64,000 nt of DNA, taken from positions 97,994-161,993 of the forward strand of contig CAZGEJ010000003.1 in NCBI GenBank assembly GCA_964524885.1. The letters run 5' to 3'. The translations under genes and the position numbers were made by a program. Each line of letters begins with the position of its first letter. Position 1 is the first letter of the stretch. The notes beneath the pieces were generated by a model. It was not told the DNA's origin. It saw only the letters and a list, made by a program, of their open reading frames with translations, and searched no databases. Below, one piece after another: positions 6,501 through 34,224 of this stretch. This stretch comes from an uncultured Candidatus Binatia bacterium (GTDB lineage Bacteria; Desulfobacterota; Binatia; HRBIN30).

Positions 6501-6895
6501 GCCAGCGACACGTCCTGCGCGTACACGACATCCAGCCGCACCGCCTCTGGGCCGGTATGGCGCAGGTGTCCCTGCCAAAACCAACGTGCTTCGTGCTCGT
6601 CGAGATGTAAGCGCAACGTGTATTCGATGCCTCGCCACGCACCGGCGAGGCGCAGCCCGTCGTCGTCGACAGCGACGGTGGAAACGCTGCGCGGTCCGAG
6701 CAGTGGCATCACCTCGATCTCGCTGGCGTGCCGCCGCAGGTAGAGATTGGTCGGGCCGCCCTCGACTTCGTTGCCGATATAGGTGTTGACCAGGATGTCG
6801 TGGTGATCGAGGCGACGCAGGGAGCCGTTGGCGTTCACCTGCACGCGCAGCCCTGCAGCGTTGGCGAACGAGAAGGGAAAGCGAGACTGCTTCAT
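3518..6895 (-). CDS. GH94-like glycoside phosphorylase or glycosyltransferase-36 family protein, 1125 aa (cellobiose/beta-glucan phosphorylase-like or NdvB-like catalytic region)
   Basis: Long uninterrupted ORF. Contains the motif AYGHGDWNDSLQPVDP, which I recall as characteristic of the GH94 (alpha/alpha)6 catalytic domain. Size fits a multidomain GH94 enzyme. Confidence 0.55.
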   Translation of the reverse strand: MKQSRFPFSFANAAGLRVQVNANGSLRRLDHHDILVNTYIGNEVEGGPTNLYLRRHASEIEVMPLLGPRSVSTVAVDDDGLRLAGAWRGIEYTLRLHLDEHEARWFWQGHLRHTGPEAVRLDVVYAQDVSLAHYGAVRMNEYYVSQYVDFTPMQHGERGWVLGVRQNLAMGGRNPWVLIGSLRRAVAFATDALQLHGPMGRDGSLPRGLLASHLPSTRLQHEHSMAVLQDEAQLVAPGGTATFGFFGSFEPHHPVATSSSDLTHVDRLGRLPDRSPRSERGATIDVSASVFRHAPNLRCEELDEAELVARFGGEWRHVERDDTRLLSFFVGADTHVVLAAKERQVLRPHGHLLRSGDHRTPDEASLTSTVWMHGVFHSMVTQGHVNINRFLSTSRSYLGLHRSGGQRLFVELDGVWHLLDVPSAFAMSPLGCRWVYKHAAGVIEVRATASATRHELGLEVAVISGGACRWLLSHHVALDGDDGAEAVPVAFRREGRHIDVRASVDGDIRRRFPEGYFRLTFDGETPVEEVGGDELLFLDGATRGQPFLCVRAAPATRLSLRLRGHLVPEVPLATHEGDTDAARAAAFQQQLVGVSAWQVPPAGEAAGELHALLPWLAHDAMVHYLAPRGLEQFSGGGWGTRDVCQGPVEMLLALGAWEPVRDILVRVFRQQNPDGDWPQWFMFFERERNIRPAESHGDIVFWPVLALASYLQASEDASILDEVIPFFDAQGDATAETADLWAHVERARSLIERRVIPGTSLPAYGHGDWNDSLQPVDPAMSEGLCSAWTVTLCCQTLRTMATALDRIGRAADAGRWRARADAIRAELQHHLIVDGVIAGYADFRDANEVKYLLHPGDRSTGIRYSLLPMIHAILNDLLTPEQARQHLTLIREHLLGADGARLFDRPFTYRGGEQRQFQRAETSSHFGREIGIMYMHAHLRYAEAMAHMGEAEAFFLALRQMNPIAIDGVIPTARRRQANCYYSSSDAAFADRYQAVAEYERVRAGTIDFEGGWRVYSSGAGIALRLVHECLLGIRRRKSTIDIDPVMPKSLDGLAVTVDLYGMPLRLHYEVGAQGCGPTALRLNGADLPFERIPHLYRVGGVRVARASLASRLRASDNALRITLA

Positions 6896-6906
6896 GGTGC
6901 TGATCC

Positions 6907-9900
6907 GTGGGCCTTACCTTGCACGTCCGGCTGTCGCATGCACGCGTCGCACCCCTGCCGTGGCGCGTCGGCTCGGGCTTCGCTAAGAGCCACGCCATGA
7001 GCGACGGCCTCGATGTTTGGATCGGCGATGCGGCAAGCTTCGACGAGTGGCGCACCGCCGCCGCCGACGGGTCGCGGGCGGATCTCGCGCTCGCGGGCCG
7101 GGCGCTACGATTTTCGTTCGAATTGGCGGGACCGACGAGTTGGGTCATTGCTCGGCGCGACATCGCCGCCGAATTGCCACCGCATTACGCGATTCTCTTG
7201 CGGCTCCGCGGCGCGGCACCGCCGAATCAGCTGCAATGCAAATTGGTCGATCCGAGCGGGCAGAATGTCTGGTGGTGGCGTATCGCCGACTTCGAACCGA
7301 CCGCCGACGGCCGAACGCTGATCCTGCGTCGGGCAGCGCTCGAGTTCGCCTGGGGACCACGCAGCGGCGGCATGCCCGAGCGCATCGGCGCGATCGAGCT
7401 CGCCTGGGCGGCAGGCAGTGGCGGCACCGGTACGGTGTACATCGACGAGGTGCGCCTGGAGGCCCGGCCCGCACCCGCCAACGAGCCGAAGATCGTCGGC
7501 ATCCGCGCCTCGAGCGACGGAGGCGACAGAGCGATCGAGAGTCTCCTCGGCGACGTTGGGCATTGGCAGCCGAACCCATCCGACGAACGCCCCTACCTCG
7601 AACTCGACCTCGGCGGCCCCGGCGAGTGGGGCGGCGTCATCGTCGACTTCGCCAGCGAGCCGGCGATCGCCTGCCGCCTGAGCGCATCGCACGACGGAGC
7701 ATCCTGGACACCACTGGCCAACGCCGACGGCGGGGCTGGCAAACGACGCTGGTTACGCACCCCCGCCGGCGACGGTCGCTTCGCCCGGCTCGACTTCGCG
7801 CCTGGCACACGCCCCGTGATCACGCGCCTTCGGATGGTCGCACTCGAGCAAGCCGTCGCGCCGGCACGCCATTTGGCCGCGCGCGCGGCTCAGGCTCGAC
7901 GCGGCTCGTTCCCGCGCCATCTGCTCGGCGAGCAAACGTACTGGGCCTTGGTCGGAGGCGACGGGGAGCGTCGCAAGGGACTATTGAGCGAATCGGGTGC
8001 CGTCGAGATCGAGGCCGAAGGCTTCACCCTCGAGCCGTTTCTGTGGGTGAACGACCGTCTCATCACGTGGGCCGACGTCGAGCCAGAGCTGCACCTGGCC
8101 GATGGGCACCTACCGCTGCCGAGCGTGCGCTGGCGGATCGATGCACTGCAGCTGGAAATCCGTCCCTTCGCCGCGGGCGAGGTCGAACGCAGTGCGCTGA
8201 TCGTCCAGTACGAACTCGCGAACCGCGGAGCAAACCCGGCGCGGCTCCGACTGTTCGTCGCGGTGCGCCCGTTTCAGGTGAATCCGACGTGGCAGAGTCT
8301 CAACATGAAGGGCGGCATCGCGCCGCTGACGCGCCTCGAAAACGATCACCGCGTGGTTCGTGTCAATCGCGAACGCCAGGTGGTGTGTGTCTCGCCGCCC
8401 GACGGCTGCGGCGCGGCGCCCTCGGAGGAGGGCTTGCGGGCGTTATACGAAGGTGCGCTGCCGGGCCTCGCGGTCGTCGACGACCCGGTCGGCTTCGCCG
8501 AGGCGGCGCTCGCCTACGACGTCGAGCTGGCACCTGGGGAAAAGGTCGCCCTGGGTGTCGCCGTTCCCTGGTACGACGCTACGCCGCCGCTGCCGACGCC
8601 GCCGGATCGGTCGACGGCGGCCCATTGGTTGGAAGGACGCCGGCACGAGAGCCTGACGTACTGGCGCCGCCGGCTGCAGCACGTGCCGATCGAATTGCCG
8701 GCGTGTGCGCGCGACTTTTCGGACAGCCTGCGGGCCTCGCTCGCGTGGATCCTCGTCAACCGCGAGGGTCCTCGCATTCAACCCGGCCCGCGCTGTTACC
8801 GGCGCTCGTGGATCCGCGACGGCACGCTGACGGGGACGGCACTGGCCGAGATGGGCTTCGCGGACGAGGCACGCGCCTTCTTGCGCTGGTATGCACCGTA
8901 CCAACGCGACGACGGGCAAGTACCGTGCGCCGTCGACCGTCATGGCGTCGACCCGGTCGACGAACACGACAGCCATGGGCAGCTGATCTGGGGTGTCGTC
9001 GAGGTGTACCGCCTGACTGGGGATCGCGCTTTCCTCGCCGAGCTGTGGCCGCGCGTCTTGCGGGCAGCGGACGCCATCGCCGCGTTGCGTGCACGACGCA
9101 CCACGGCGGCCCATCGCGGCAAGCCGTCGTTCGGCCTCTTGCCGGAGTCGATCAGCCACGAGGGATACGCCTCACAGCCGGTGCATTCCTACTGGGACGA
9201 TTTTTTCGCCGTGCGCGGGCTCGCCGACGCGGCCTTCGCGGCGAACGTGTTGGGCGACCCGGCGGCGGCGCGTCTGACGGCATGGCGCGACGCGATGCGC
9301 GTCGACCTGCACGCCTCGATCGCGCAAGTGCTGGCCGAGCAGCACCTCGATTTCCTTCCGGGTTCCGTCGAGTTGGGCGACTTCGACCCGACGTCGACGG
9401 CGATCGCCCTCGACCCCGGCGGCGAAGGGGCGCGCTTACCCGCGACGGCGCTGGCGCGGACGTTCGCGCGATACTGGGAAGAGTTCGACCAACGGCGACG
9501 CGGCATCATGCACAACGAGTCCTATACCGCGTACGAGGTGCGCAACGCACCGGCACTGGTGTTGCTCGGACAGCGTCAGCGAGCCGTCGAGCTGTTGCAG
9601 TGGTTGATGGACGATCAACGCCCGCCGGCGTGGCGGCAATGGCCGGAAGTGAGCACCCGCGACCCACGAGTGGCCCGCTTTCTCGGCGATCTGCCACATG
9701 GATGGATCGCCTCGAGCTTCGCCCGCGCCGTGCGCCGGATGCTGGCCTACGAACGCGCGGACGACGGCGTCTTGGTACTGGCCGCCGGAGTGCCCGAGGC
9801 TTGGGTGCGCCAGGCGCCGGGCGTGCGGGTACGTCAGCTGCCGACGCATTACGGCCGCCTCGACTTGCACCTACAGGCCGTAGGCGAACACCGCATCGTC

Positions 9901-10074
9901 GTGCACTGTGGCGGCGCCCTGTCGCCGGCGATGCCTGGAATCGTCCTCCATGCGCCGTGCGAGCAACCGCTCCGGCGTGTCCAGGTGGATGGGCGAGTCC
10001 ATCCCGTCGACGCACCGGACCGCGTGCACCTGACGGCGCTGCCCCGAGAGGTGGTCTTGCACTACGACGACTGA
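6907..10074 (+). CDS. GH15-like (alpha/alpha)6-barrel glycoside hydrolase (glucoamylase/glucodextranase-like), about 1025-1055 aa
   Basis: CYRRSWIRDGTLT resembles the GH15 Y-x-W-x-RD signature. A six-hairpin-like helical region follows (FLRWYAPYQRDDGQVPC...HGQLIWGVVEVYRLTGD). An alternative ATG start at 6997 (MSDGLDVW) is possible. Divergent from the GH94-like gene. Confidence 0.5.
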   Translation: MGLTLHVRLSHARVAPLPWRVGSGFAKSHAMSDGLDVWIGDAASFDEWRTAAADGSRADLALAGRALRFSFELAGPTSWVIARRDIAAELPPHYAILLRLRGAAPPNQLQCKLVDPSGQNVWWWRIADFEPTADGRTLILRRAALEFAWGPRSGGMPERIGAIELAWAAGSGGTGTVYIDEVRLEARPAPANEPKIVGIRASSDGGDRAIESLLGDVGHWQPNPSDERPYLELDLGGPGEWGGVIVDFASEPAIACRLSASHDGASWTPLANADGGAGKRRWLRTPAGDGRFARLDFAPGTRPVITRLRMVALEQAVAPARHLAARAAQARRGSFPRHLLGEQTYWALVGGDGERRKGLLSESGAVEIEAEGFTLEPFLWVNDRLITWADVEPELHLADGHLPLPSVRWRIDALQLEIRPFAAGEVERSALIVQYELANRGANPARLRLFVAVRPFQVNPTWQSLNMKGGIAPLTRLENDHRVVRVNRERQVVCVSPPDGCGAAPSEEGLRALYEGALPGLAVVDDPVGFAEAALAYDVELAPGEKVALGVAVPWYDATPPLPTPPDRSTAAHWLEGRRHESLTYWRRRLQHVPIELPACARDFSDSLRASLAWILVNREGPRIQPGPRCYRRSWIRDGTLTGTALAEMGFADEARAFLRWYAPYQRDDGQVPCAVDRHGVDPVDEHDSHGQLIWGVVEVYRLTGDRAFLAELWPRVLRAADAIAALRARRTTAAHRGKPSFGLLPESISHEGYASQPVHSYWDDFFAVRGLADAAFAANVLGDPAAARLTAWRDAMRVDLHASIAQVLAEQHLDFLPGSVELGDFDPTSTAIALDPGGEGARLPATALARTFARYWEEFDQRRRGIMHNESYTAYEVRNAPALVLLGQRQRAVELLQWLMDDQRPPAWRQWPEVSTRDPRVARFLGDLPHGWIASSFARAVRRMLAYERADDGVLVLAAGVPEAWVRQAPGVRVRQLPTHYGRLDLHLQAVGEHRIVVHCGGALSPAMPGIVLHAPCEQPLRRVQVDGRVHPVDAPDRVHLTALPREVVLHYDD

Positions 10075-11553: not shown

Positions 11554-12381
11554 CTATCGCGGATCGTGCGGGCGAGCCCCGCGGCCGGGACTGGGCGCCA
11601 CGTGGTGCGGCGCATCGAGTTGGGCCAACCTTCTTTCGATGCCATGCCGGTAGCGACGCGCCGTTTCGGCATCGGCCGCGGCCATGACCGCCTCGATCCG
11701 TGCGGCCATGTCGTCGCCGCCCTCGAACAACGCCGCGAGCGTCGCTTGCATCGATTCCAACACGCGAGCGCGGTCGGCATACATCGCCTCGACGAGGATC
11801 GGATGCTCCTCGAGCACCTTGGCCATGGTGCTCAGCAAGACGGCGAAAATTCCGTTGCCGGTGGCGCGCACGAGCTTCTTCGAGAACTCGATCTCGGCCC
11901 GCCAAAAGGCGTGATTGTGGGCATCCTCGAAGGCTGCGACCTCCTCCAGCAGCGAGGGCAAGACCTCGAGGATGCGCTCGCGGTGGCGCACCATCAGCCG
12001 AACGGCCAAGGTGCGCCGCACCTCGCCGAGTTCGATGATGAGCGCCGTCGCCCGCTCCGGGTCGTCGGCACAGGCCGCCAGCCAGTCGGCGATCAGCGAC
12101 AAGTCGGCGATGTCGTGCGGGTCGTTGACGCGCAGGCCGCTGCCTTGGCGGGCGGTGACCAGGCCACGCGCCTCGAGGCGAGCCAGCGCCCGCTGCATGG
12201 TCGAGGGGTCGACGCCGTATTGCTGGGCGAGTTCGCGCAGCGTCGGCAAGCGCGTGCCGGGACGATGTTCGCCCCGCAGGATGGCCCGCGTCAGGTCGCG
12301 ATCGATGCGTTCCGCAGCGTTGACAGTGCTCAGAGCCGGTTCACTCACGCTCTCCCCATAGCCAGCCGGCGCAGCGCACAC
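11554..12381 (-). CDS. GntR-family transcriptional regulator (FadR-type C-terminal domain)
   Basis: N-terminal winged HTH (RLPTLRELAQQYGVDPSTMQRALARLEARGLV) with an all-helical C-terminal domain. The exact start is uncertain (possibly GTG at VSEPAL). Confidence 0.7.
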   Translation of the reverse strand: MCAAPAGYGESVSEPALSTVNAAERIDRDLTRAILRGEHRPGTRLPTLRELAQQYGVDPSTMQRALARLEARGLVTARQGSGLRVNDPHDIADLSLIADWLAACADDPERATALIIELGEVRRTLAVRLMVRHRERILEVLPSLLEEVAAFEDAHNHAFWRAEIEFSKKLVRATGNGIFAVLLSTMAKVLEEHPILVEAMYADRARVLESMQATLAALFEGGDDMAARIEAVMAAADAETARRYRHGIERRLAQLDAPHHVAPSPGRGARPHDPR

Positions 12382-12459: not shown

Positions 12460-13998
12460 TCATAGGACGGCGCGGGCGAGGGTCGGCCAGGGATGCGCCT
12501 CTTCGATTTGCAGCGCCAGTTCCAGCAACAGCGCTTCGTCGCCGAGAGCGGCACTGAACATCATGCCCACCGGTAGGTGATTCGTCTCATCGAAACCGAG
12601 CGGCAGGCTGATCGCCGGCGCGCCCGTGGCGTTCGCCAACGGGGTGTAGCCTGTCCACTGGACGATGCGCGGGAACAACACGTCGAACGGCAACACAGGG
12701 CTCAAGTAACCCAGGGGCGGCGCGACGTGCGTCAGCGTCGGCGACAGGAATACGTCGAATTGTTGGAACAACTCGGCATAGCGCTGATGCGATCGACGCA
12801 GGCGGTAAATGGCCGCCGGCGCCTTGTGCAGATTGCGGCGAAACGTCTCGGCGAGGCCACGACTCAGATCCGTCATCTGCCCGGGGTCGAAGCTGCGGTC
12901 GAAGAGCTTGTCCCCGAGCCGCCGCACCAGATAACCGTAACATCCGTAGAGCAAGACGAAGTCGTCGGCGAAACGCGAATCGATCGGCGCCGTGCTCGGC
13001 TCGACCGCGTGACCGAGACTTTCGAGCAGTGCGACGGTCGACTCGAAGGCACTGCGGGTCGCCGCGTCGTTCGGGTGCCCGACGGGCGAGGCGAGCATGG
13101 CGCCGATCCGCAACCGACGGCGTAGCGGCGAGGTGACGTGCCCGATCGGCTTCAGGCGCGGGTTGCGGTAGCGCTTCTCCGCCTCGGCGTAAAACAGAGC
13201 GGTATCGCGAACGCTGCGGGTCACGACACCATGGACGGTCGTCTGGCCCGGCTCGAGATTGGGACCGGGCGGGCCGATGAGACGACCGCGCGAAGGCTTG
13301 AGCCCGACGAGTCCGCAGACCACGGCGGGGATCCGGATGGAGCCGCCGCCGTCGGCGGCATGGGCGATCGGCACCGCGCCGGCGGCGACGAGGGCGGCGG
13401 CACCGCCGGAGGAGCCGCCGCTGCTGCGACCGAGGTTCCACGGATTGCAGGTCGGTTCGCGGTGGGTGAACTCGGTCGACGGCGAGAAACCGATTTCGGG
13501 CATCGTCGACTTGCCGAGCGAGATCAGGCCCATGTCGAACATCTGCGCCGCGAGCCGATCGGTACTTTTCTTGGCCGCCGCCTCCGCCAGTGCCTGCGTG
13601 CCCCAGCGGGTCGGCAAGCCGGCGACGTCGATCATGTCCTTGATCAGCGTCGGCACGCCGGCGAAAGGGGTATCGCCGGTCGCCCGGTCGGCGGCGGCGA
13701 GGGCACGCTCGTAGTCGGCCATTTCCAGAGCGTGGAGATGCGGCTCGAGCGCGTCGATGCGGGCAATGGCGCGCTCGACGACCTCGCGCGGCCGCAGTTC
13801 GCGGCGGCGGACGAGTTCGGCGGTCGCCACGGCATCGAGCCGAGCCCAGGCGTCGTCGAAGGCGTGTGCGGAGCGCGGCGCCGGCGTGGCGGCAGCATCG
13901 TCGGAGGGAGGCAACATCATCGGCGGGACTCTCGGGTTGAGATCATTGTCGTCGCGGCAGGGTCCGGTCGTCGGGCGGGTCGGCGCACCCTGCCTCAT
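12460..13998 (-). CDS. Amidase (amidase-signature family)
   Basis: GGSSGGAAALVAAG signature, with the catalytic K in TLIKDM and S-cis-S arrangement. Met75 of the ORF (MRQGAP) is preceded on the coding strand by GAGGAGGG, so I start there rather than at 14220. A start at 13920 is also possible. Confidence 0.85.
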   Translation of the reverse strand: MRQGAPTRPTTGPCRDDNDLNPRVPPMMLPPSDDAAATPAPRSAHAFDDAWARLDAVATAELVRRRELRPREVVERAIARIDALEPHLHALEMADYERALAAADRATGDTPFAGVPTLIKDMIDVAGLPTRWGTQALAEAAAKKSTDRLAAQMFDMGLISLGKSTMPEIGFSPSTEFTHREPTCNPWNLGRSSGGSSGGAAALVAAGAVPIAHAADGGGSIRIPAVVCGLVGLKPSRGRLIGPPGPNLEPGQTTVHGVVTRSVRDTALFYAEAEKRYRNPRLKPIGHVTSPLRRRLRIGAMLASPVGHPNDAATRSAFESTVALLESLGHAVEPSTAPIDSRFADDFVLLYGCYGYLVRRLGDKLFDRSFDPGQMTDLSRGLAETFRRNLHKAPAAIYRLRRSHQRYAELFQQFDVFLSPTLTHVAPPLGYLSPVLPFDVLFPRIVQWTGYTPLANATGAPAISLPLGFDETNHLPVGMMFSAALGDEALLLELALQIEEAHPWPTLARAVL

Positions 13999-14011
13999 CC
14001 GGCCCTCCTCG

Positions 14012-14036
14012 GCATGTATACGATACAATTGTGTCG
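14012..14036. promoter_or_regulatory. AT-rich partially palindromic element (gcatgtatacgatacaattgtgtcg) in the divergent promoter region between the amidase gene and the PhaC-like/acyl-CoA-synthetase fusion gene
   Basis: This is the only markedly AT-rich 25-mer in an otherwise roughly 70% GC intergenic region. It contains ACAATTGT. It lies just upstream of the amidase RBS, and a GntR/FadR-type regulator gene sits next to the amidase gene. Confidence 0.3.
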
Positions 14037-14174
14037 CGCAACGCTCCGACGGTCGCGCACGCCGCAGAAAGCCCTGGTCGGACGGCGGGCTCGGCCGTCG
14101 ACCGCACCGCACGCCGATGATTCCCCCGGCGCCACTTCCAGGGCATAACCACGGCGGCAACGGAGGAGACGCGC

Positions 14175-17100
14175 ATGGCCGACAACGAAGTTCGCGGACC
14201 GAGCGGCGACAACGAATCAACCGCAGGCCTGCTTGGCCTGCCGGCCCAGTTCGTCGCCGCGGTGCGCAACGCCATGGACATCGCCCGCATGGGCCAGGTC
14301 GAATCGGACACCAAGACCCCGTACGAGGTGGTGCACCGCGAGCCGACCTTCGCCCTCCGGCGCTATGGCGCCGGCGAAGCCCACGGCGCTCGCGGCGCCC
14401 GCCCGGTCGTCCTGCTCGTGCCGCCCCTGATGATCACCTCCGAGGTCTACGACATCAGCTCCGATGCCAGCGCCGTGCGCTTCCTGCTCGATCGCGGCAT
14501 CGACCCCTGGGTCGTCGACTTCGGCGCCCCCGAACGCCAAGAAGGCGCCCTGCAGCGCACCCTCACGGATCACGTCCTCGCCTGCAGCAAAGCCGTCGAT
14601 CGCGCCTGCGCCGCGACGGGCCGCAAGGTCCACATCGCCGGCTACAGCCAAGGTGGCATCTTCGCCTACCTCGCGGCGGCCTTTCGTCGCGGCGACGGCC
14701 TCGCCTCGATCATCACCTTCGGCAGCCCGGTCAACGTGCATAGCCAGGTGCTGCCGGGCGTCCCCGACGAGGTCTTGGTGCCGATCATCGAAAGCCTCGG
14801 GCCGGTGCTCGCCACCGGCTTTTCGCGCTCGGCCGTGCCGGCGTGGTTGACGCGCAACACCTTCCGCCTGCTCAGCCCGACCAAGGCGATTCAGAACCAG
14901 ATCGACTTCCTGCGCTCGCTCAGCGACCGCGACGCCCTGGCGCGCAAGGAGGGGCAGCGCCGCTTCCTCGGCGGCGAGGGCTTCGTCGCCTGGCCGGGTC
15001 CGGCCTTCGGCGAGTTCATCGAGCAGATGATCATGGGCAACCGGCTGTTCTCCGGCGGTTTCGTCGTCGAGGGGCAGACCGTCACCATGGCGGACATCAC
15101 CTGCCCGGTGCTCGCCTTCAGCGGCGAGAACGACGACATCGCGCGACCGCCGACGGTGCGGTCGGTGGCGGACGCTGCGCCGCGCGCCGAACTCTGGGAG
15201 GCGAGCATCGTCGCCGGGCACATGGGCCTGGTCGTCGGCAGTCGCGCCATGCGCCAGACGTGGCCCACCGTGGCCGAGTGGATCTTCTGGCGTGAAGGCC
15301 AGGGCGAACGGCCGCGCCTCGTCCATCCTCTCGGCAGCGACGAGGCCGAAGCGGCAGCACCGGAGGGTGAGGACCCGACCCCCTCGGGTTGGCTCGGCAC
15401 TGCCGAGGCCGTCAGTCGCGATGCCCTGAGTCTCTTCTTCGGCGCCGCCAGCGAGGGTGCCGAAGCGGTCGTGCGCTTGGGCAACAACCTCACGCGCCAG
15501 CTACCGCGCCTCGTCCGCCTCGAGGGCCTGCGGCGTGACACGCGCGTCGGCTTGGCACTGACCCTCGCCGAACAGGCCAAGGCCAACCCGGACGACACCT
15601 TCTTCCTGTACGAAGGACGGGCCCATTCCTTTGCCGACGCCGACCGGCGCGTCGACGCCATCGTACGCGGGCTCATCCACATCGGCGTGCGCGCCGGCGA
15701 TCACGTCGGCGTCTTCATGCTGACCCGGCCGACGGCGCTCGCCGTCGTCGCGGCGATCAACCGGCTCGGCGCCATCGCCGTGTTGTTGCGCCCGGAAGGC
15801 GATCTCTCCGCCGAGCTGCAGGTCGGCGGTGTCGAACACCTGATCGCCGACCCGGAAAACGCCGGCGCCGCGGCAACCGAATGGTCCGGCACGGTTTACG
15901 TGCTCGGGGGCGTCAACACGCGCCACGGCGCCTTGCCGCCGAGCGCCGTCGACATGGAGAAGATCGACCCCGCCGCGGTCGCGGTGCCCGACTGGTATAC
16001 CCCCTCGCCTGGGCGCGCCGAGGAGGTGGCGTTCCTGTTCTTCGCCGGCCACGGCGAGAACCTGCGCGCCAACCGCATCACCAACCGCCGCTGGGCGTTG
16101 TCGGCATACGGCACCGCCTCCGCCGCCGCACTGACCTCGGCCGATACCGTCTATTCGTGGACCTCGCTGCAACATCCGACCGGCCTGCTGGTTTCGGTCA
16201 GCGGCGCGCTCGCCGGCGGCGCCCGCCTGGCGATGGCGCACGGCTTCGACGCGCCGGCCTTTTGGGGCGAGATCCGTCGCTACGGCGCGACCGTCGTCTT
16301 CTACGCCGGCATCATGCTGCGCGAACTCGTCGACGCGCCGCATGATGTCGCCGAGCGCAAACACCCGGTGCGCCTGTTCGCCGGCTCGGGCATGCCGCGC
16401 CCGTTGTGGCGTCGTGTCGTCGAGCGGTTCGGCCCCGTCGACGTGCTCGAGTTTTATGCCACCACCGAGGGCAACGCGATTCTCGCCAACGTCTCCGGCA
16501 AGAAGGTCGGCTCCTGCGGCCGCCCCATCCCCGGCAGCGCCGCGGTGCGTGTCGCCGCCTGGGATCTGGCCACGGGCGGACCGGTCTACGACGCCGCGGG
16601 CTACGTGCGGGCCGCCGAGCCCGGCGAGCCGGGGATGTTGCTCGCCGAAGTCGAACGCGAGCGGGGCGCGCTCGCGGGTAAACCGATGCGCAACGCCTTC
16701 ACCCGCGGCGACGCATGGAGCGCCAGCGGCAGTTTGTGTGTCGCCGACGCCGACGGCGACCACTGGCTGCGCGACCAAATCAGCGACGTCATCCGCCATC
16801 GACGCGGCGTCTTGCTCGCTGCGCCGATCGAGGAGGCGCTGTGGGAGTTGCCCTTCGTCGGTGCGGCGGCGGCCTACGGGCTGCGCTTGCTCGGCGTCGA
16901 GCACGAGGTCGTCGCCGTCGCCTTGTTGCTGCGGCGCGAGGGTCTCGACCCCGAAGCCGTCACACAAGTCCTCATCGACCGGCTCGACGACGCCGCGCGC
17001 CCGGTGGTGTTGCGGCTGGTCGACGAATTGCCGCTGACGGCCGGCTACCGCGTCGTCAAGTCGGCCTTGCGGGAGCAAGGCCTGCCGCGCAACGAAATCG

Positions 17101-17231
17101 CCGCCGGGCGGATCTGGGTCCGGCATCCGGACAGCCTGCGTTTCGAGCCGCTCACGGCCAAGAAACAAGCGAGTTGGATTCGCGCCCAGTCGCCGCAAAG
17201 CGTCGCGCGCCCGGCGAAGCGTCGCCGCTGA
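14175..17231 (+). CDS. Fusion protein: PHA-synthase-like alpha/beta hydrolase domain with Ser nucleophile, joined to a FATP/very-long-chain-type acyl-CoA synthetase domain, 1018 aa
   Basis: N-terminal half resembles PhaC (VVLLVPPLMITSEVYDIS...DPWVVDFGAP...). Its lipase box is GYSQGG, not the PhaC G-x-C-x-GG. C-terminal half has AMP-binding motifs (LTRPTALAVVAAINRLGAIAV; FYATTEGNAILANVSGKKVGSCGRPIPG; ligase motif near HWLRDQISDV). GGAGGAG RBS before the ATG. Confidence 0.8.
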   Translation: MADNEVRGPSGDNESTAGLLGLPAQFVAAVRNAMDIARMGQVESDTKTPYEVVHREPTFALRRYGAGEAHGARGARPVVLLVPPLMITSEVYDISSDASAVRFLLDRGIDPWVVDFGAPERQEGALQRTLTDHVLACSKAVDRACAATGRKVHIAGYSQGGIFAYLAAAFRRGDGLASIITFGSPVNVHSQVLPGVPDEVLVPIIESLGPVLATGFSRSAVPAWLTRNTFRLLSPTKAIQNQIDFLRSLSDRDALARKEGQRRFLGGEGFVAWPGPAFGEFIEQMIMGNRLFSGGFVVEGQTVTMADITCPVLAFSGENDDIARPPTVRSVADAAPRAELWEASIVAGHMGLVVGSRAMRQTWPTVAEWIFWREGQGERPRLVHPLGSDEAEAAAPEGEDPTPSGWLGTAEAVSRDALSLFFGAASEGAEAVVRLGNNLTRQLPRLVRLEGLRRDTRVGLALTLAEQAKANPDDTFFLYEGRAHSFADADRRVDAIVRGLIHIGVRAGDHVGVFMLTRPTALAVVAAINRLGAIAVLLRPEGDLSAELQVGGVEHLIADPENAGAAATEWSGTVYVLGGVNTRHGALPPSAVDMEKIDPAAVAVPDWYTPSPGRAEEVAFLFFAGHGENLRANRITNRRWALSAYGTASAAALTSADTVYSWTSLQHPTGLLVSVSGALAGGARLAMAHGFDAPAFWGEIRRYGATVVFYAGIMLRELVDAPHDVAERKHPVRLFAGSGMPRPLWRRVVERFGPVDVLEFYATTEGNAILANVSGKKVGSCGRPIPGSAAVRVAAWDLATGGPVYDAAGYVRAAEPGEPGMLLAEVERERGALAGKPMRNAFTRGDAWSASGSLCVADADGDHWLRDQISDVIRHRRGVLLAAPIEEALWELPFVGAAAAYGLRLLGVEHEVVAVALLLRREGLDPEAVTQVLIDRLDDAARPVVLRLVDELPLTAGYRVVKSALREQGLPRNEIAAGRIWVRHPDSLRFEPLTAKKQASWIRAQSPQSVARPAKRRR

Positions 17232-17260
17232 CGCGCGCCACGACGGACGAGCCGCGCCCC

Positions 17261-17950
17261 ATGCCCGCGGAAGGCACGCTGCTGCTGTCGCCGCACGCCG
17301 ACGACGCGGCCTTCTCCTTGGGCGGCGCCATCGCCGCCGGCTTGCTGCCGAGGCCGATCACCTTGCTCACCGTGTTCGGCCGTTCGACGTTCAGCCACGG
17401 CACGGGCCCCAACGGCGATGTCGACGCCGTCACGCGCCAGCGCCGCGCCGAAGACGAAGCCTACGCACGGCGGCGTGGTCTGCAGTGGATTTGGTTGGAG
17501 CACGAGGATGCGGTGGTGCGTCTCGGCTGGGACGCGATCTTCCGTGGCGATGCGCCGCGGCCGGACTGTACTCACGCGATCATCGCGGCCGCGCGTGACG
17601 TCGGCGCGGCTCTCGTGCTGGCACCCCTCGGGCTCGGCAACCACGTCGACCACTGCTTGTTACGCGACCTCGCGGTGGAGATGACGAACGATGGCGACCT
17701 CGCCTTCTACGAAGACCTACCCTATGCCGCGACCCTTGCGCCGAACCGCATCGCGACGCACGTGCAAGCCTTCGAAAAGACATTGCAACCCACCGAGCTG
17801 CCTCTCGACCAAGCGGCGCTCGATGCCAAGCAGGCCGACGTCGAAACCTATGTCAGCCAAGTCGACTTTTGGATCCGCCGTTCCCTGCGGCGCCATGCCC
17901 GGCGTGGGCGAGAGCGCCTCTGGAGTCGAGAGAGCCTGAAGCTGGGATGA
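17261..17950 (+). CDS. PIG-L/LmbE-family N-deacetylase
   Basis: LLLSPHADDAAFSLGGAIA matches the PIG-L S-P-H-x-D-D motif. A second His/Asp motif (NHVDH) is present. The start sits 30 nt after the stop of the upstream fusion gene. Confidence 0.7.
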   Translation: MPAEGTLLLSPHADDAAFSLGGAIAAGLLPRPITLLTVFGRSTFSHGTGPNGDVDAVTRQRRAEDEAYARRRGLQWIWLEHEDAVVRLGWDAIFRGDAPRPDCTHAIIAAARDVGAALVLAPLGLGNHVDHCLLRDLAVEMTNDGDLAFYEDLPYAATLAPNRIATHVQAFEKTLQPTELPLDQAALDAKQADVETYVSQVDFWIRRSLRRHARRGRERLWSRESLKLG

Positions 17951-18033
17951 GCCTGGCGCGCGCCGAGGCATCTCTGCCGAGCCTCGGTTTCTCACCACGG
18001 ACGGAAATGAAGAGTTGCCGTGAGACGGCCAGG

Positions 18034-19308
18034 CTAGCGCCGACGGCGGGCTTCGACCAGCGCCAGATACCGCTCGACGAAACGTTCCTCGCTGTAATCG
18101 GTGGTGTACGCCTGCCGCGCCTGCTCGGCCAACTGCCGGCGTGTCGTCGGCTCGTCCCGTAAGCGATCGACGGCTGCGGCGAGTTGCGACTCGTGGCGAA
18201 ACGTCAGGCCTCCACCGTGATCCTCGATGAACTCGGCGAGCCCGCTGTGGTCACGAACGATCACGGGTGTGCCGGCGGCGAACGATTCGATCACGACCAG
18301 GCCGAAGGTCTCGAAGCAACGCGACGGCACGATGGTCGCGACTGCCCCGGCATACCAGGGCGCCAGGGCGTTAGCGTCGAGTAACCCGAGCATCCGGACA
18401 TTGGGCGTGCGCCGCGCCTCGTCCGCCAGCCGATCGCCCAAGCGACCCGCGCCGGCGATGACCAAGTCGATGTCGCGCCGCTGGCGAAACACCGACAGCA
18501 AGTCCTCGACTCCCTTTTCGGGTTCGAGGCGGCCGGCGAAGAGGAAGTAGGGTCGGTCGGCAGCGCGACGGACGCTGGGCGCTTGAGGATCGAGCGGATC
18601 GGCATCACAGAAGAGAGGCAGATGGACGATGTCGCCAGCGAGGCCGCGCCGGCGATGCTCCGCCGCGGTGGCACGGCTCGGGGCCAGGAACACGTCGACG
18701 GGTTCGCAGGCGCGCTGCAGCCGACCGACGGAGCGCCACAGCTGCGGCGGCCGCCCGGCATGCAAGGTACAGGCGGCACACGTGGGACGGGTGCAGGCCT
18801 CACGTCCAAAGCGCCAGAGGTCGTGGCGCGGACAGACGAGCCAATGATCACTGAGCGTGCACAACTTGAGAGCGCGGCCGAAGCGAAACGCCTCCAGGCC
18901 GCCCATCATCGAGGGGTTGTTGAAGTGGATGACGTCGTAGTTCTCCGCATCGAGCCAACGGCGCAGCGCCGAGCGCAGCGGCGCAGCGGTTCCGGCCTGG
19001 TGCATCCACAACAGGCCGAGGGCCCCGCCCGTGGCGTCGAGCGGCACGACGTCGATGTTGGGGTGGCGGCGCACCGCACCCATGGGGGGATGCCGGGCGA
19101 GAACGGAAAAGGCGGTACGATCGTGCAGCACGCGCACGAAGTGGCCACGCGCGGCGAGAGCGTGCGCCAGGCGTTCGGCGAAGATGGCATCGCCGCCGAA
19201 GTGGTACGGTGGGTAGAAGGTCGTGACGATACAGACGCGCAAGCAAGGCCGAGCGCCCACCGCGCCGACGTCCCCGGCCGTCGCACCGATCGCTTCGCTC
19301 GTCCGCAT
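18034..19308 (-). CDS. GT4-family (GT-B) glycosyltransferase with a Cys-cluster insertion
   Basis: N-terminal VCIVTTFYPPYHFGGDAIFAERLAHALAARGH is typical of GT4 (MshA/BshA-like). C-terminal E-x7-E region (FETFGLVVIESFAAGTPVI). The insertion CPRHDLWRFGREACTRPTCAACTLH carries four Cys. Confidence 0.75.
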   Translation of the reverse strand: MRTSEAIGATAGDVGAVGARPCLRVCIVTTFYPPYHFGGDAIFAERLAHALAARGHFVRVLHDRTAFSVLARHPPMGAVRRHPNIDVVPLDATGGALGLLWMHQAGTAAPLRSALRRWLDAENYDVIHFNNPSMMGGLEAFRFGRALKLCTLSDHWLVCPRHDLWRFGREACTRPTCAACTLHAGRPPQLWRSVGRLQRACEPVDVFLAPSRATAAEHRRRGLAGDIVHLPLFCDADPLDPQAPSVRRAADRPYFLFAGRLEPEKGVEDLLSVFRQRRDIDLVIAGAGRLGDRLADEARRTPNVRMLGLLDANALAPWYAGAVATIVPSRCFETFGLVVIESFAAGTPVIVRDHSGLAEFIEDHGGGLTFRHESQLAAAVDRLRDEPTTRRQLAEQARQAYTTDYSEERFVERYLALVEARRRR

Positions 19309-19491
19309 GATTCGTTCGAGTCTGGTCGACCCTCGTCGCGATGGCAACCACGTACCGCGCGCAGCGAACGCGACGGCGCGCCATCCCCGAAAGGCCAGCG
19401 ATGTAGGCGAGCGACCCGCCACGGCTTCGCCGCGAAATAGCCATTGACTTCGCTGCCCTCGGGCGGTCTGTTGAGGCACAGCCAGGTTGCC

Positions 19492-21624
19492 ATGTCGAAT
19501 TCGCTGCGTTCGTACCTCACGTCGGTCCCCCTCCTTGCCGTGCTCGTGGGCCTCGGCCAAGCGCCTCCTTCATTGGCGGCACCTTGGCTCGCCGTCGGCC
19601 CGGAGGGCGCACCCGTCTTGTCGATCGGAATCGAGAGCGGCAGCAACACCAACCTCGTCGCCACGGTGCGCGATCGCGGCCTACTCCGCAGTGTCGATGG
19701 TGGCGCGTCGTGGCAGGAGGTAGTCAGCAGTCCGTCGCCGGCACTGCGCGTCGCGGTGCATCCGAGCAATGCGGCGCTGGCGGTGAGTACCGCGTCACAG
19801 GTGTGGTTTCGCCTCGCCGGCGACAGCCGCTGGCTGGCGTCGAAACTGAGCCCCGCCGACGTGATCGCCATCGGGCCGGGCGAGCCGGTCAGCGTGTACG
19901 GCGCGCGCGGCAGCTCGATCCAGCGCGCCATCGGCGAAGGGGCGGCGGTTTCCATCGCCGACGGACTGGCTGGCGCGCGCGTGCGCACGCTGCGGTTCGA
20001 CCCCATTCGCCCGACACGCCTGTACGCCGGGACCAACGACGGGCTGTTCCTTTCGCAGGATCGAGGCACGAACTGGTCCCGCGCCGGCAACGCCCTGGCG
20101 GGCGTCGACATCGTCGCGGTCGCCACCGATCCCCGCCAAGCGAGCCGGCTGTTCGCCGGCGGCAGCGACAGCGGCGTGTGGCGCAGCAGCGACTCGGGGG
20201 CGACGTGGGTTCGCATCAACGACGGGTTGGCCGACCTGCGCATCCGCGACCTGGCGGTCGACGGCAGCGTCGCCGGTCGAGTGTGGGCGGGCACCGAGGA
20301 CGGCATCTTCGTTTCGAACGATCACGGCGCTTCGTGGAGCCGTGCCGACCTCGAGCCGCGAGCGCCGGTCCTCGGCGTGGTCGCCGGCGCAGCGGGCGGT
20401 CTAGCGTACGTCGCCACCAGCACGGGCCTGGTGGTCACCGACGATGCCGGAGCGAGTTGGCAGCCGGCCAACGGCGGCTTGCTGGCGACGACGGTCACGG
20501 CTCTGCAGATGCTCGGCGACGACCCGCGCGAGGTCGTCGCCGGCACCTCCGGCGGAGTCTTCGTCAGCTTCGACGCGGGCGGGCAGTGGTCTAGCTTGAA
20601 CGAAGGCCTACGCAGCCCGCTGGTGCAGGATCTCGCCATGGTCGGCACGGACCTGTTCGCCGCCACGCTGGCCGGGGCGTGGCGCCTGCCCGGCTTGGGG
20701 CAGGCGTGGTCGCGCTTGAACGGCATCACCAATCCGGCGGTGACCTCGGTGGTGGCCGACGGGGCGCTGGCGGATCGGCTCTACGCCGCGACCGCCGGTG
20801 GGGGGATTTTCCGCAGTAGCGACGCCGGTGCCACCTGGCGCGCGGCCAATACCGGCGTCAGCAGCCTGTTCCTCACCCGACTGGCAGCCGTGCCGGGGGT
20901 CCCAGGAGAAATCTACGCCCTCGCCGCCAACCAGGTGATCGTCACCCGCAACGGCGGCGACAGCTGGACGGTCGCCGGCCCTCTGCCCGCAGGGACGATC
21001 GCGGACTTGGTCGTGTCGCCGCACGCGGCGTCACTCTTGTTCCTCGCCACCTCGACCGGCGTGCGTCGCAGCCGCGACGCTGGACAGAGCTGGCAAGAAA
21101 CCGGCTTGAGCGGGCTGAGCGTCGAGTCGCTGCTCGCCTCGGCACGTGCGCCTGGACTGGTGTACGCCGGCCTGCGCGGCGGCAGCATCCGCGTCAGCTT
21201 CGACGACGGCACCAACTGGCAGAGGCTGGGTGGGGCCGGACCGTTGGGTTCAGTTCTCACCATGGCCGAGGCCGCGGACGGCAGCCAATTCTTCGCCGGG
21301 ACGCGCGACGCCGGCGCCTGGGTCGCGCAGCAACTCTGCGGCGACGGTGAACTCGACCCCGGCGAGACCTGCGACGATGGCGGCAACGGCAGTTGCCCCG
21401 CCGGCTGCGGCGCGACGAGCCGCTGCGTCGGCGACTGCAACGGCAGCGGCGACGTCACCGTCGACGAGATCGTCCGCGGGGTGTCGATCGGCTTGGGCAT
21501 CGCCGAAGTCGGGGGCTGCACGGCGATGGATCGAAACGGCGACCGACTCGTCACCGTCGACGAGATCATCGCCGCCGTAGCCAACGCCTTGGGCGGCTGT
21601 CGCGACGCGACGTTGGCGAACTGA
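19492..21624 (+). CDS. Secreted BNR/Asp-box beta-propeller protein (about 10 repeats) with a C-terminal dockerin-like double EF-hand module
   Basis: Signal peptide (MSNSLRSYLTSVPLLAVLVGLGQAPPSLAAP). Ten S-x-D-x-G-x-[ST]-W repeats (SVDGGASW, SQDRGTNW, SSDSGATW, SNDHGASW, TDDAGASW, SFDAGGQW, SSDAGATW, TRNGGDSW, SRDAGQSW, SFDDGTNW). C-terminal GDCNGSGDVTVDEIV...DRNGDRLVTVDEII. Confidence 0.7.
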   Translation: MSNSLRSYLTSVPLLAVLVGLGQAPPSLAAPWLAVGPEGAPVLSIGIESGSNTNLVATVRDRGLLRSVDGGASWQEVVSSPSPALRVAVHPSNAALAVSTASQVWFRLAGDSRWLASKLSPADVIAIGPGEPVSVYGARGSSIQRAIGEGAAVSIADGLAGARVRTLRFDPIRPTRLYAGTNDGLFLSQDRGTNWSRAGNALAGVDIVAVATDPRQASRLFAGGSDSGVWRSSDSGATWVRINDGLADLRIRDLAVDGSVAGRVWAGTEDGIFVSNDHGASWSRADLEPRAPVLGVVAGAAGGLAYVATSTGLVVTDDAGASWQPANGGLLATTVTALQMLGDDPREVVAGTSGGVFVSFDAGGQWSSLNEGLRSPLVQDLAMVGTDLFAATLAGAWRLPGLGQAWSRLNGITNPAVTSVVADGALADRLYAATAGGGIFRSSDAGATWRAANTGVSSLFLTRLAAVPGVPGEIYALAANQVIVTRNGGDSWTVAGPLPAGTIADLVVSPHAASLLFLATSTGVRRSRDAGQSWQETGLSGLSVESLLASARAPGLVYAGLRGGSIRVSFDDGTNWQRLGGAGPLGSVLTMAEAADGSQFFAGTRDAGAWVAQQLCGDGELDPGETCDDGGNGSCPAGCGATSRCVGDCNGSGDVTVDEIVRGVSIGLGIAEVGGCTAMDRNGDRLVTVDEIIAAVANALGGCRDATLAN

Positions 21625-25922: not shown

Positions 25923-26027
25923 CCTTTGCCCCGACCAATTCTGTCGAAATTCTGATTGCCTCGCCCCCCGGCGCTGGCGTAGAACGTAGCGTCGTCTCGA
26001 TCTACGCCGGAACCGAAGGGGGCCTTG

Positions 26028-29000: not shown

Positions 29001-30530
29001 ACCGGCGGCGGCAGCTTCACCGGCAACCTGACGCCGAACTACACGATCCAGTTCGACATCGCCTGCCCGGCCGGCGCTGCCTATACGCTCACCGTCAACA
29101 CCTCCTCGGGCGGTGCCTTGACCGTCAACCGCGACAACGGCGACGGCTGCGATCTGCCCTTCTTCGGCACCACCGACCAGTCGACCGCCTTCATGTCGGC
29201 CATCAGCGGCAGCAATAGCGGCGGGACACTGCAAAGCGCCGGCACGCTCAACCTCGACGCACCGGGTTCGCTGGTCTCCAGTAACGACAGCAACACCGCC
29301 TTCAGCGACAGCAACAGCGCCGTCATCACCGGCGTCGGCACCGGCGCCCCGGTCGCCCACTCGCTCACCTTCAACTGGTCGACCTCCTGCGTCAGCAGCG
29401 GCAATAGCCTCGACACCGGAGCCGAGTGCAGCGTCCGCTTCGGACGTGACTCCGACCTCGAGCCGAACGGCATCTCCGGCTGCATGACGGCCGACGACTA
29501 CCCCGGCGTCGGCAGCCGCTCGACCGCCAGCGACGGCCATATCGTCAGCTTGTCGGCAAGCTGCGGCGCCACGCCCACGCCGACGATCACCCACACCCCG
29601 ACGATCACGCCGACGCCGACGGTCACGCCGACCAACACGCCGACGATCACCCCCGGTGGCCCAACCCTGACACCGACACCGTTGGCCACCGCCACAGCGA
29701 CGGCCACGGCGACCGCCGAACCGCTGGGCACTCTCAACTTCAGCGTCGTCACCGGCCCCGGCGGCAGCGATACCGCCCCCGGCTGCCCAGGTGAGCCTTC
29801 CAACGGCTCGCTCCTCAAGACCCAGGGCAATCCGACCGGCGGCATCCCGGGCACCATCTGCAACGGCACCAAGGGCGACTTCTACATGCTCGGCGGACCC
29901 ATGCAGCTGAGCGGCGGCTCCCCCGACGCCAACGGCATCGCCGATCTCAGCATCGTCGCCCCCGTCGTCGTCGGCGCCAGCCTCCCCGGCTCGACCCCCA
30001 ATTGCAGCAACTGCGACGCTTGCTGGCGCATCGAACAGGATGCCACCGTCGGCTTCGTCGACTGCGACGGCGGCTCCAACGCCAGCGTCTCGGTGACCAT
30101 CGACAGCAACGGCTCCAGTGCCCCGCCCGCCCCCGCCAATGGTCCGTACCTCCTCGGCAGCGGCAATACCGGCAGCGGCGCCGCCGTGCTGAATGCGATC
30201 ATCAAGCGCAAAACCGTCACCGGTTCGTGCCCCGGACCGTCCGACTCGTCCTGGAACTCGCCCGACAGCACCGTGTCGGCGTACCTGGTCACCGGCAGCG
30301 CCACCTCGACGATCGACGACCGCCGCCAGTGCAGCGGCAGCACCTTCGGCACGGCCTGTCCCTCGAACAACCCGTATACGGTGACGCTCAGCGGCACTAA
30401 CCTGAACTGCAACACCTGGGCCGAGAACACCGGTGCACGCTTCGTCGTGCCGTTCCAGAATCTCGACCAGGTCATCGGCGGCAGCTTCGGCAACGGCGAC
30501 ATCGCCCAAGTCCTGCGCCTGAACGACTGA
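26028..30530 (+). CDS. Giant secreted modular protein, 1501 aa, with Thr/Pro-rich linkers and three homologous modules (scaffoldin-like architecture)
   Basis: Signal peptide ([28 protein letters not shown]). Four (TP)n linkers, up to about 75 aa ([23 protein letters not shown]...). Three homologous modules carry the conserved core [VI]C..[IL]...[GW][WF][VI]DC[ND]GG[ST]N[AG][SD][VA]SL[SAT][IV]DSN. They are separated by a distinct Ser/Thr/Asn-rich module. Cys-rich N-terminal domain. Confidence 0.7.
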
Positions 30531-31832: not shown

Positions 31833-32249
31833 CTATTGCAGGACGTGCAGTAGGTTGGCGCGCGTCGCCACACTGGACAGCGGCGTGCGATAGATGGGCA
31901 ACATCGCCAACGCGAACGCGACGACGATCGCCGCCCACACCCACACGCGCAGCCGCGCCGCGCCGAGGCGCGCCCGCCCCCACCGCACCAGGCGACGGAT
32001 GACCAAGGCCAGCAGCCCGGCGTAGAGCAACCCGGGGAGCAAGCTGAAGGCGACGATCAGCCCCGGCACCAGATCGCCCTCGGCCCACCACACCGCCGCG
32101 GTGGCGCCGCCCAGAGCCCCCATGCGCAGCACCGGGGCGAACTCCCACTCGAAGACGAAATAAGGCAACGGAACGGTGAGCAACGCCGTCAGCCACAGGG
32201 CAAAGGTCAAGGCACGCCCTCCCGCGGATGCGTCGCGCGCCGTCATCAT
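31833..32249 (-). CDS. Small integral membrane protein (about 138 aa), translationally coupled to the upstream DUF3604 gene
   Basis: Four hydrophobic segments (ALTFALWLTALLTVPLPYFVF; LIVAFSLLPGLLYAGLLALVI; WVWAAIVVAFALAML). Its ATG overlaps the stop of the preceding gene (ATGA) at 32246-32249. Confidence 0.5.
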   Translation of the reverse strand: MMTARDASAGGRALTFALWLTALLTVPLPYFVFEWEFAPVLRMGALGGATAAVWWAEGDLVPGLIVAFSLLPGLLYAGLLALVIRRLVRWGRARLGAARLRVWVWAAIVVAFALAMLPIYRTPLSSVATRANLLHVLQ

Positions 32250-34168: not shown

Positions 34169-34224
34169 ACCGGCCCTTTAGCCGGTTGACCGACCGCCGC
34201 GCAAAGGCGAGGATCGCCCTCCGC

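Follow-up and report, generated by a model that had tools for sequence, protein, structure and literature searches.

A divergent relative of mycobacterial Rv1683/BCG1721 that joins a PhaC-like serine hydrolase domain to a FATP-like domain with a non-canonical set of ligase motifs

Mycobacterial Rv1683 and its orthologue BCG1721 join, in a single polypeptide, an alpha/beta-hydrolase domain and a domain related to acyl-CoA synthetases, a fusion that has reportedly been annotated since the publication of the Mycobacterium tuberculosis genome. Together with LipY, BCG1721 is one of only two lipases that have been linked to the breakdown of lipid inclusions, and Rv1683 has been reported to be relevant for growth. 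BCG1721 was isolated with the lipid droplets of hypoxic BCG (PMC6333902), and a review table lists it as positive for the hydrolysis of triacylglycerol (TAG) in vitro (PMC3503283). Its catalytic serine, S150, lies in a GXSXG box; when the protein is overexpressed, non-replicating cells contain more TAG and lipolysis upon reactivation is faster, and the substitution S150A abolishes the effect on lipolysis (PMC10699116). A similarity of Rv1683 to gastric and lysosomal acid lipases has been noted (PMC10699116), and resistance to benzoxaboroles has been traced to the Rv1683 substitutions M200I, A201T and L341P (PMC5571309). As to the synthetase half of BCG1721, one review states that it is "thought to" possess acyl-CoA synthetase activity (PMC10699116), and another describes it as "exhibiting" that activity. 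Here, we describe a computational analysis of a gene encoding a 1018-residue protein of the same architecture, found in a 64,000-nucleotide stretch of bacterial DNA (contig CAZGEJ010000003.1; the whole stretch is hereafter called the window). We present evidence that the hydrolase half of this protein is related to the PHA synthase PhaC, and that its FATP-like half retains the fold of an acyl-CoA synthetase with a catalytic motif set that departs from the canonical one throughout the family.

Judged by its match to NCBIfam NF005898 (PRK07868, equivalog, "acyl-CoA synthetase"), the window protein is a divergent new member of the catalogued Rv1683/BCG1721 family: its score of 1037.7 bits exceeds the curated cut-off of 925, and the alignment joins residues 25-1001 of the protein to positions 14-985 of the 994 in the model. 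Homology searches returned 4,436, 4,791 and 4,513 proteins, mostly of 970-1150 residues and with the same two-domain architecture, and, when each species was represented by a single genome, at least 570 species genomes were found to carry a relative. The fusion, which the original prediction had taken from an uninterrupted reading frame, is thus genuine; it is also common and already catalogued, and is not new. That two separate genes had been joined by an assembly error or a frameshift was the obvious objection, and it is refuted to the point of deserving virtually no credence, as the same architecture recurs at about 970-1150 residues in thousands of independent assemblies, complete genomes included, and one curated full-length model spans both halves. 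The reading frame itself is continuous from an ATG start through 1018 codons. The mean guanine-plus-cytosine (GC) content of the window is about 68%, so that long spurious open reading frames (ORFs) are common in it; the GC content of the fusion gene at codon positions 1, 2 and 3 is 0.72, 0.52 and 0.88, which is typical of coding DNA, and the third-position value together with the thousands of homologues rules out an ORF that arose by chance on a GC-rich strand, just as the recurrence of the fusion rules out an assembly chimera.

The members closest to the window protein are spread over several phyla. Loci were compared for the best 80 of the at least 570 relatives, with 6 kb of flanking DNA on either side, and they belong to Actinomadura/Spirillospora, Solirubrobacterales, Acidimicrobiia, Myxococcota, Binatia and unplaced metagenome-assembled genomes (MAGs). 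Among the matches listed, the closest species-level genome is that of an uncultured bacterium and is only 72% identical, which indicates that the lineage of the window is poorly sampled. No Mycobacterium is among these best 80 loci of the species scan. Members from Mycobacteriales were found in Mycobacterium europaeum, M. simiae, M. kubicae, M. gordonae, Rhodococcus opacus, Prescottella equi, Dietzia and Corynebacterium, and neither the homology-search matches nor those of a cluster look-up contain an M. tuberculosis record despite many other Mycobacterium species. The link to Rv1683 is therefore drawn through the other Mycobacterium orthologues and the published residue numbers. When 22 such orthologues were numbered so that the serine of G-Y-S-Q-G-G is residue 150, Ala201 and Leu341 were present in all 22, Leu341 lying in G-H-F-G-L three residues past the triad histidine; Val, Ile or Leu occupies position 200 in these sequences, against the published Met of Rv1683. 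The counterpart of Rv1683 L341 in the window protein is L352 (nucleotides 15228-15230), and L341P accordingly falls on the third residue past the catalytic His in G-H-x-G-L; M200I and A201T lie close to where the cap region begins. Because these sites lie near the triad His and near the beginning of the cap, both benzoxaborole-resistance routes appear to hit the hydrolase and not the synthetase-like domain.

With the Rv1683/BCG1721 family the window protein shares its two-domain architecture, its length, the GYSQGG nucleophile (Ser150), the triad Asp and His, and the absence of lysine from the A10 motif. It differs in being only about 45-50% identical to the Mycobacteriales members (median 0.48 per domain), and in a clade-wide P-loop that is more degenerate (AGHGENLR versus STTGGRR) and accompanied by loss of the A7 aspartate. 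Its host is an uncultured high-GC bacterium. Lipid-droplet association and TAG lipase activity are known for BCG1721 only.

The hydrolase half is a PhaC-like domain with serine in place of cysteine, and is not a polyhydroxyalkanoate (PHA) synthase. When residues 1-400 were compared with NCBIfam, counting matches at E < 1e-3, the protein's own family model ranked first, and beyond it only PHA synthases (class III TIGR01836 at 3.9e-32 over profile positions 35-347 of 350, class I at 3e-11, class II at 4e-6) and the PHA depolymerase PhaZ (2e-5) were matched; Pfam gave only weak alpha/beta-hydrolase and PHB-depolymerase matches over the first 400 residues. A 16-sequence profile of the hydrolase domain retrieved five PHA synthases from all PDB sequences (1e-15 to 5e-9), the remaining entries scoring no better than E = 0.004. 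In the profile alignments VVLLVPPLM falls on the PhaC motif P-(V/L)-L-(I/M)-V-P-P, WVVDFGAP on F-M-I-S-W-R-N-P, D-D/E-I-A on D-H-I-A/V, G-H on G-H-I, and G-Y-S-Q-G-G on G-Y-C-I-G-G or G-F-C-V-G-G, with Ser158 on the cysteine of 9knj and 5hz2; a deposited mutant of C. necator PhaC, 5t6o, reads G-F-A-V-G-G at the nucleophile box. The AlphaFold2 (AF2) model of the domain has a predicted template-modelling score (pTM) of 0.74 and a core with a predicted local distance difference test score (pLDDT) above 85, and its best 14 Foldseek matches in the PDB are all PhaC (E 1e-13 to 1e-11), followed by lysosomal acid lipase and gastric lipases, with RhlA also among the fold neighbours. Foldseek and the alignments together place in this half a PhaC-type alpha/beta fold with an Asp-His pair and a cap. 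The kinship to PhaC that had been read by eye from the PLLIVPP- and FVISWRNP-type motifs, and the exchange of the catalytic Cys for Ser in G-Y-S-Q-G-G, are thus borne out; profile searches with hidden Markov models, PDB sequences and fold all lead to PhaC rather than to a generic esterase lacking any relationship to it.

This kinship does not extend to function as a PHA synthase. PhaC proteins (TIGR01836; class I structures 5hz2, 5t6o, 5xav and 9knj) are the closest relatives of the N-terminal domain outside its own family, in sequence as well as in fold, and share with it the P-x-L-x-V-P-P motif, the G-x-Nuc-x-G-G box, the Asp-His pair and the cap domain. The window protein departs from them in its Ser nucleophile, in its fusion to an ANL (AMP-binding) domain and in scores that fall short of the PhaC cut-offs, 111.6 versus 365.3 bits for class III (TIGR01836) and 42.5 versus 622.65 bits for class I (TIGR01838); the experimental link of its family, moreover, is to TAG and not to polyester. 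Because its scores are far too low for any of the PhaC models and it has no Cys, the fusion protein is not a PhaC, in agreement with the original view that classical PHA synthesis was not involved, and no PhaE or PHA genes were found near the fusion gene. The gastric and lysosomal acid lipases (1hlg, 1k8q, 6v7n), the next-best fold after PhaC, likewise have a Ser-Asp-His triad with a helical cap, but they are only 12-15% identical, give no significant sequence-profile match and are eukaryotic secreted or lysosomal enzymes. A search of 1.84 billion representatives with the profile of the N-terminal domain also turned up short matches, which are indistinguishable from gene fragments.

The nucleophile is not fixed in the family. 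In a 241-sequence family alignment it is Ser in 232 sequences and Cys, as G-Y-C-Q-G-G, in the other nine (P0053, P0057, P0062, P0086, P0088, P0092, P0137, P0141 and P0161), which belong to at least three separate lineages and some of which are closely related to Ser-bearing sequences. The Ser158 codon of the window gene, AGC, is one substitution from TGC. Because these nine homologues carry a Cys nucleophile, a thioester-type intermediate seems to be tolerated, and the Ser/Cys interchange together with the apparent PhaC ancestry would allow the N-terminal domain an acyl-transfer, or synthetic, activity. The protein might then work in the synthetic direction, in keeping with the original prediction, its ANL half supplying or binding acyl-CoA and its PhaC-like half acylating a hydroxyl acceptor through an acyl-Ser (acyl-Cys in some homologues) to yield TAG, a wax ester or another ester. 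The chemistry of PhaC is itself acyl transfer from CoA thioesters by way of a covalent nucleophile, and RhlA, one of the fold neighbours, is a dual thioesterase/acyltransferase. The rise in TAG upon overexpression of BCG1721 would fit as well (PMC10699116). The only activity tied experimentally to the serine, however, is lipolysis (S150A, PMC10699116), the fold comes nearly as close to that of gastric and lysosomal acid lipases, the formation of acyl-CoA is itself doubtful, as set out below, and no acceptor-specific partner gene is conserved nearby, so that we consider a dedicated synthetic role improbable.

The C-terminal half is related to the very-long-chain synthetases of the FATP/ACSVL type. 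Residues 465-805 match Pfam AMP-binding (PF00501; 4.8e-34, 118.2 bits against a gathering score of 29.9), AMP-binding_C (PF13193) falls just under its gathering score (23.7 versus 24.5 bits), and the best solved relative is human FATP2 (PDB 9vzp; 4.7e-51 over residues 444-971), followed by M. tuberculosis FadD5 and by acetyl-CoA synthetases. The cut-offs of the FATP-type models are not reached (260.8 versus 625 bits for PRK08279, NF006134; 197.1 versus 975 for FadD6, NF038342). About 530 residues align with FATP2, and, in comparison with FATP2 and the bacterial FadD6/PRK08279 proteins, the fold and the A4, A5 and A6 regions are kept. The full-length AF2 model (pTM 0.74) folds both the hydrolase and the ANL domain with confidence. 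Relative to the window protein, median identity within the family is 0.58 for the large ANL subdomain, 0.54 for the hydrolase and 0.19 for the linker between the two halves.

It is in the active-site motifs that this domain departs from its relatives. Motifs were called from three concordant pairwise alignments, to FATP2, FadD5 and acetyl-CoA synthetase. The canonical A3 motif or P-loop, Y-T-S-G-T-T-G-(L/R)-P-K (TSGTTGLPK in FATP2), is replaced by F-F-A-G-H-G-E-N-L-R, which carries a Glu and is without Ser or Thr; the S-G-D of A7 becomes S-G-S853; A8, canonically D-R-x-x-D-x-x-(R/K)-x-x-G-E-N, reads D-Q-I-S-D-V-I-R-H-R-R-G-V and is unrecognisable; and the catalytic Lys of A10 (Ala in the second FATP2 entry, 20zn) is Arg959. 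The glutamate of A5 contacts Mg/ATP, and the aspartate of A7 contacts a ribose hydroxyl. The fold of the ANL half is thus intact and conserved, and its catalytic motif set is non-canonical. The original prediction had described a complete AMP-forming acyl-CoA synthetase of the FATP type; its class and fold stand, whereas the active-site inventory does not, and the activation of a fatty acid to the CoA thioester, which had been attributed to this half, is made doubtful by the state of its P-loop, A7 and A10.

The same departures run through the family. A census of the 241-sequence alignment found the A10 Lys in none of the sequences (Arg in 219, Gln in 22), the P-loop Lys in one and the P-loop Pro in five, the A8 Arg in 27, the A5 Glu in 202 and the A7 Asp in 124, and this pattern was repeated in the 80 species-level genomes. 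Further losses differ by clade. The A7 Asp is missing from the window's clade, the nearest homologues (P0001-P0028) having S, N, T, G or V instead, and the A5 Thr-Glu from a subgroup of gammaproteobacterial MAGs (P0057, P0062, P0064, P0069, P0086 and P0093) in which A5 reads E-I-F-V-A-R-G-S-N, A10 has Gln-Gln, and C-terminal tails of 100-150 residues are rich in Lys, Pro and Ala. The literature that we searched does not discuss that the family as a whole has neither the A10 Lys nor a canonical P-loop, and this appears, on the strength of these alignments, to be the one new point about the NF005898 family.

Because the ANL half is without a canonical P-loop, A7 Asp and A10 Lys, we suggest that it probably does not run the standard ATP-dependent cycle of adenylation and thioesterification at a normal rate. 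It is nevertheless kept under strong selection. The protein could, as its annotation has it, be bifunctional, a lipase that frees fatty acids combined with an unusual but active long-chain acyl-CoA synthetase (ACSL), with Arg at A3 and A10, that returns them as acyl-CoA for beta-oxidation or re-esterification. A complete ANL fold under purifying selection, the retention of A5, the predominance of Arg at the Lys positions, which conserves charge, the review that credits BCG1721 with ACSL activity, and the rise in TAG of non-replicating cells upon BCG1721 overexpression (PMC10699116) would all agree with such an enzyme. Neither an A10 Lys nor a canonical P-loop, however, is found in any of the 241 sequences, the window protein adds a loop with Glu and no hydroxyl residue, the change of A7 Asp to Ser and the lost A8, AMP-binding_C stays just below the Pfam threshold, and the second review goes no further than "thought to" (PMC10699116). 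On balance we regard an active synthetase as a rather unlikely, if serious, alternative.

We think it fairly probable instead that the window protein is a neutral-lipid esterase with a divergent, possibly non-ligase FATP-like half. The triad Ser158-Asp320-His349 would attack an ester substrate to form an acyl-serine intermediate; by analogy with BCG1721, the substrate is most likely TAG or another neutral lipid of intracellular inclusions. The acyl group would then be freed by hydrolysis, and its transfer to another acceptor is chemically possible. The FATP-like domain, judging from its motifs, may serve in fatty-acyl or lipid binding, acyl-CoA binding, substrate handling, contact with a lipid surface or some other divergent partner role. 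For lipase activity and lipid-droplet association we rely on published work on the orthologue from mycobacteria, and both would apply here by analogy. Several observations weigh against this assignment. The exchange of Lys for Arg at A3 and A10 keeps the charge and might still allow catalysis, and the Mycobacterium orthologues retain a P-loop-like S-T-T-G-G-R-R at A3, so that the departure from the P-loop varies across the family. A domain with a purely structural role would not be expected to conserve A5 and, in half of the members, A7. The present data do not show that the organism of the window stores TAG, and simple hydrolysis leaves the increase of TAG upon BCG1721 overexpression without an explanation (PMC10699116).

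A broader proposal, which we put forward only tentatively, would account for that increase. Across NF005898, Rv1683 included, the ANL half may be a repurposed pseudo-ligase that has ceased to adenylate fatty acids and has acyl chains, acyl-CoA or the surface of lipid droplets as its ligands instead, and the PhaC-like Ser/Cys domain may carry out reversible acyl transfer. A single reversible active site would therefore explain both the build-up and the breakdown of TAG that are associated with BCG1721. The prediction of a new, dedicated ester- or amide-forming lipid pathway, by comparison, is not borne out, as the protein belongs to NF005898, a family already linked by experiment to the hydrolysis and build-up of TAG on lipid droplets.

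The coordinates of the gene, its domains and motifs, and the adjoining genes are collected in Table 1. The residues N32, A37, R38 and G40 of the N-terminal helix are nearly invariant, and our guesses as to the role of this helix are contact with a lipid surface or contact between domains. A scan of positions 13800-18200 for promoters and terminators gave no signal above the shuffled background.

Table 1. Features of the fusion gene and its surroundings (window positions)
Feature	Position	Strand	Basis
GntR/FCD regulator	11554-12381	-	
Amidase NF005899 (PRK07869), divergent from the fusion gene	12463..13902	-	571 bits versus cut-off 418
Ribosome-binding site GGAGGA, 7 nucleotides before the ATG	14162..14167	+	Read from the sequence
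Fusion gene, 1018-residue two-domain protein, NCBIfam NF005898 (PRK07868), Rv1683/BCG1721 family	14175..17231	+	ORF list, translation, NF005898 score
Conserved N-terminal helix, residues 21-40	14235..14294	+	Alignment conservation; AF2 helix H21-40, low pLDDT
PhaC-like alpha/beta-hydrolase domain, residues 46-370	14310..15284	+	TIGR01836 match, PDB profile matches, Foldseek
Ser158 codon AGC, nucleophile of G-Y-S-Q-G-G	14646..14648	+	Aligned on PhaC catalytic Cys and Rv1683 Ser150
Helical lid/cap insertion, residues 190-289	14742..15041	+	Helices at pLDDT < 50 in both AF2 models; same position as the PhaC/gastric-lipase cap
Asp320 codon, triad acid	15132..15134	+	Aligned to DHIA/DHIV of PhaC; invariant (241/241)
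His349 codon, triad base in G-H-M-G-L	15219..15221	+	Aligned to PhaC GHI motif; invariant (241/241)
Variable inter-domain linker, residues 390-439	15342..15491	+	Median identity to homologues 0.11-0.19 (domains ~0.5); pLDDT < 50
FATP/ACSVL-type ANL (AMP-binding) domain, residues 444-971	15504..17087	+	Pfam PF00501, FATP2 9vzp alignment, AF2 pLDDT mostly 85-95
Non-canonical A3 "P-loop" F-F-A-G-H-G-E-N-L-R-A	16038..16070	+	Alignments to FATP2 and FadD5
A5 motif E-F-Y-A-T-T-E-G-N, kept	16449..16475	+	FATP2 EFYAATEGN
A7 motif S-G-S-L, Asp replaced by Ser853	16725..16736	+	Aligned to SGDL of FATP2 and FadD5
A10 motif T-A-G-Y-R-V-V-K, Arg959 at the catalytic Lys position	17037..17060	+	Aligned to Lys of FATP2, FadD5 and acetyl-CoA synthetase
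PIG-L family deacetylase	17261..17950	+	Pfam PF02585, 8.7e-9
GT4 glycosyltransferase, convergent	18034-19560	-	
BNR/sortilin-like protein	19444-21624	+	

The genes around the fusion gene had suggested a local cluster in which the protein would serve a dedicated acyl-sugar or amide-lipid pathway together with the amidase, the GntR regulator, the PIG-L deacetylase and the GT4 glycosyltransferase. All of these genes are present as described: the GT4 and amidase genes are adjacent, and PIG-L begins 30 nucleotides past the stop codon of the fusion gene. Because the gap contains no terminator-like site, PIG-L and the fusion gene may be co-transcribed here. A palindrome, CGATACAATTGTGTCG, at 14021-14036 in an AT-rich patch of the intergenic region between the divergent amidase and fusion genes could be a candidate operator for the adjacent GntR/FCD regulator. 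The arrangement, however, is not conserved. An 85%-identical relative (locus L081) shares the flanking backbone, namely, on the upstream side, the portion of ORF 6907-10074 that encodes its C-terminus and, on the downstream side, the BNR gene with the two ORFs following it, and lacks the amidase, GntR, PIG-L and GT4 genes. Upstream of its fusion gene L081 carries genes for a pseudouridine synthase and a P450 as well as a small ORF, where the window has an AI-2E transporter, GntR and the amidase; between the fusion and BNR genes it has no gene at all, and PIG-L and GT4 (window 17261-19560) thus form an insertion of about 2.3 kb relative to L081 7128-7299. Neither PIG-L nor the amidase lies beside the fusion homologues in L081-L084, the neighbours are unrelated in the 72% and 65% relatives, and tblastn searches with the neighbouring proteins of the window found none of them within the 6 kb flanks at the 80 genome loci, save for one weak GT4 match. 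PIG-L is, by this comparison, a lineage-specific insertion and not a conserved partner, and because the neighbours are not conserved even at 85% identity we reject the gene-cluster reading; the local pathway is largely refuted and very unlikely.

The NCBIfam accession of the amidase, NF005899, numerically adjoins that of the fusion protein, NF005898; in none of the 80 genomes do the two genes lie side by side, and the proximity of the two numbers therefore looks coincidental. The window otherwise presents an ordinary chromosomal context without lipid-metabolism genes. Among its genes are those for a GH94-type (SOGP) glycoside phosphorylase at 3518-6913 (-), a DUF3604 protein at 32246-34177 (-; 3e-170) and Mfd at 57690-61349 (-), and it further encodes two histidine kinases, a molybdopterin oxidoreductase and a 1603-residue Big_2-domain protein. 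A 1515-residue ORF at 25983-30530 (+), which matches no Pfam family, has a signal-peptide-like N-terminus and several related-looking modules of about 300 residues joined by Thr/Pro-rich linkers (TPTPTPT...), and coincides with the strongest negative GC skew of the window (about -0.2). ARAGORN called a tRNA-Cys (GCA) at 61145-61212 (+) that is wholly contained in the oppositely oriented Mfd/TRCF ORF and is probably a false positive.

Finally, the family to which the window protein belongs reaches beyond the actinobacteria to Myxococcota, Binatia, gammaproteobacterial MAGs and the window's own lineage, and a role in the turnover of stored lipid like that of Rv1683 may therefore be widespread. 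The synthetase half of the label "bifunctional acyl-CoA synthase/lipase", under which these proteins are annotated, rests on homology. If it is true that the ANL domain is not a ligase, mycobacterial models of the channelling of fatty acids from lipid droplets would need revision.

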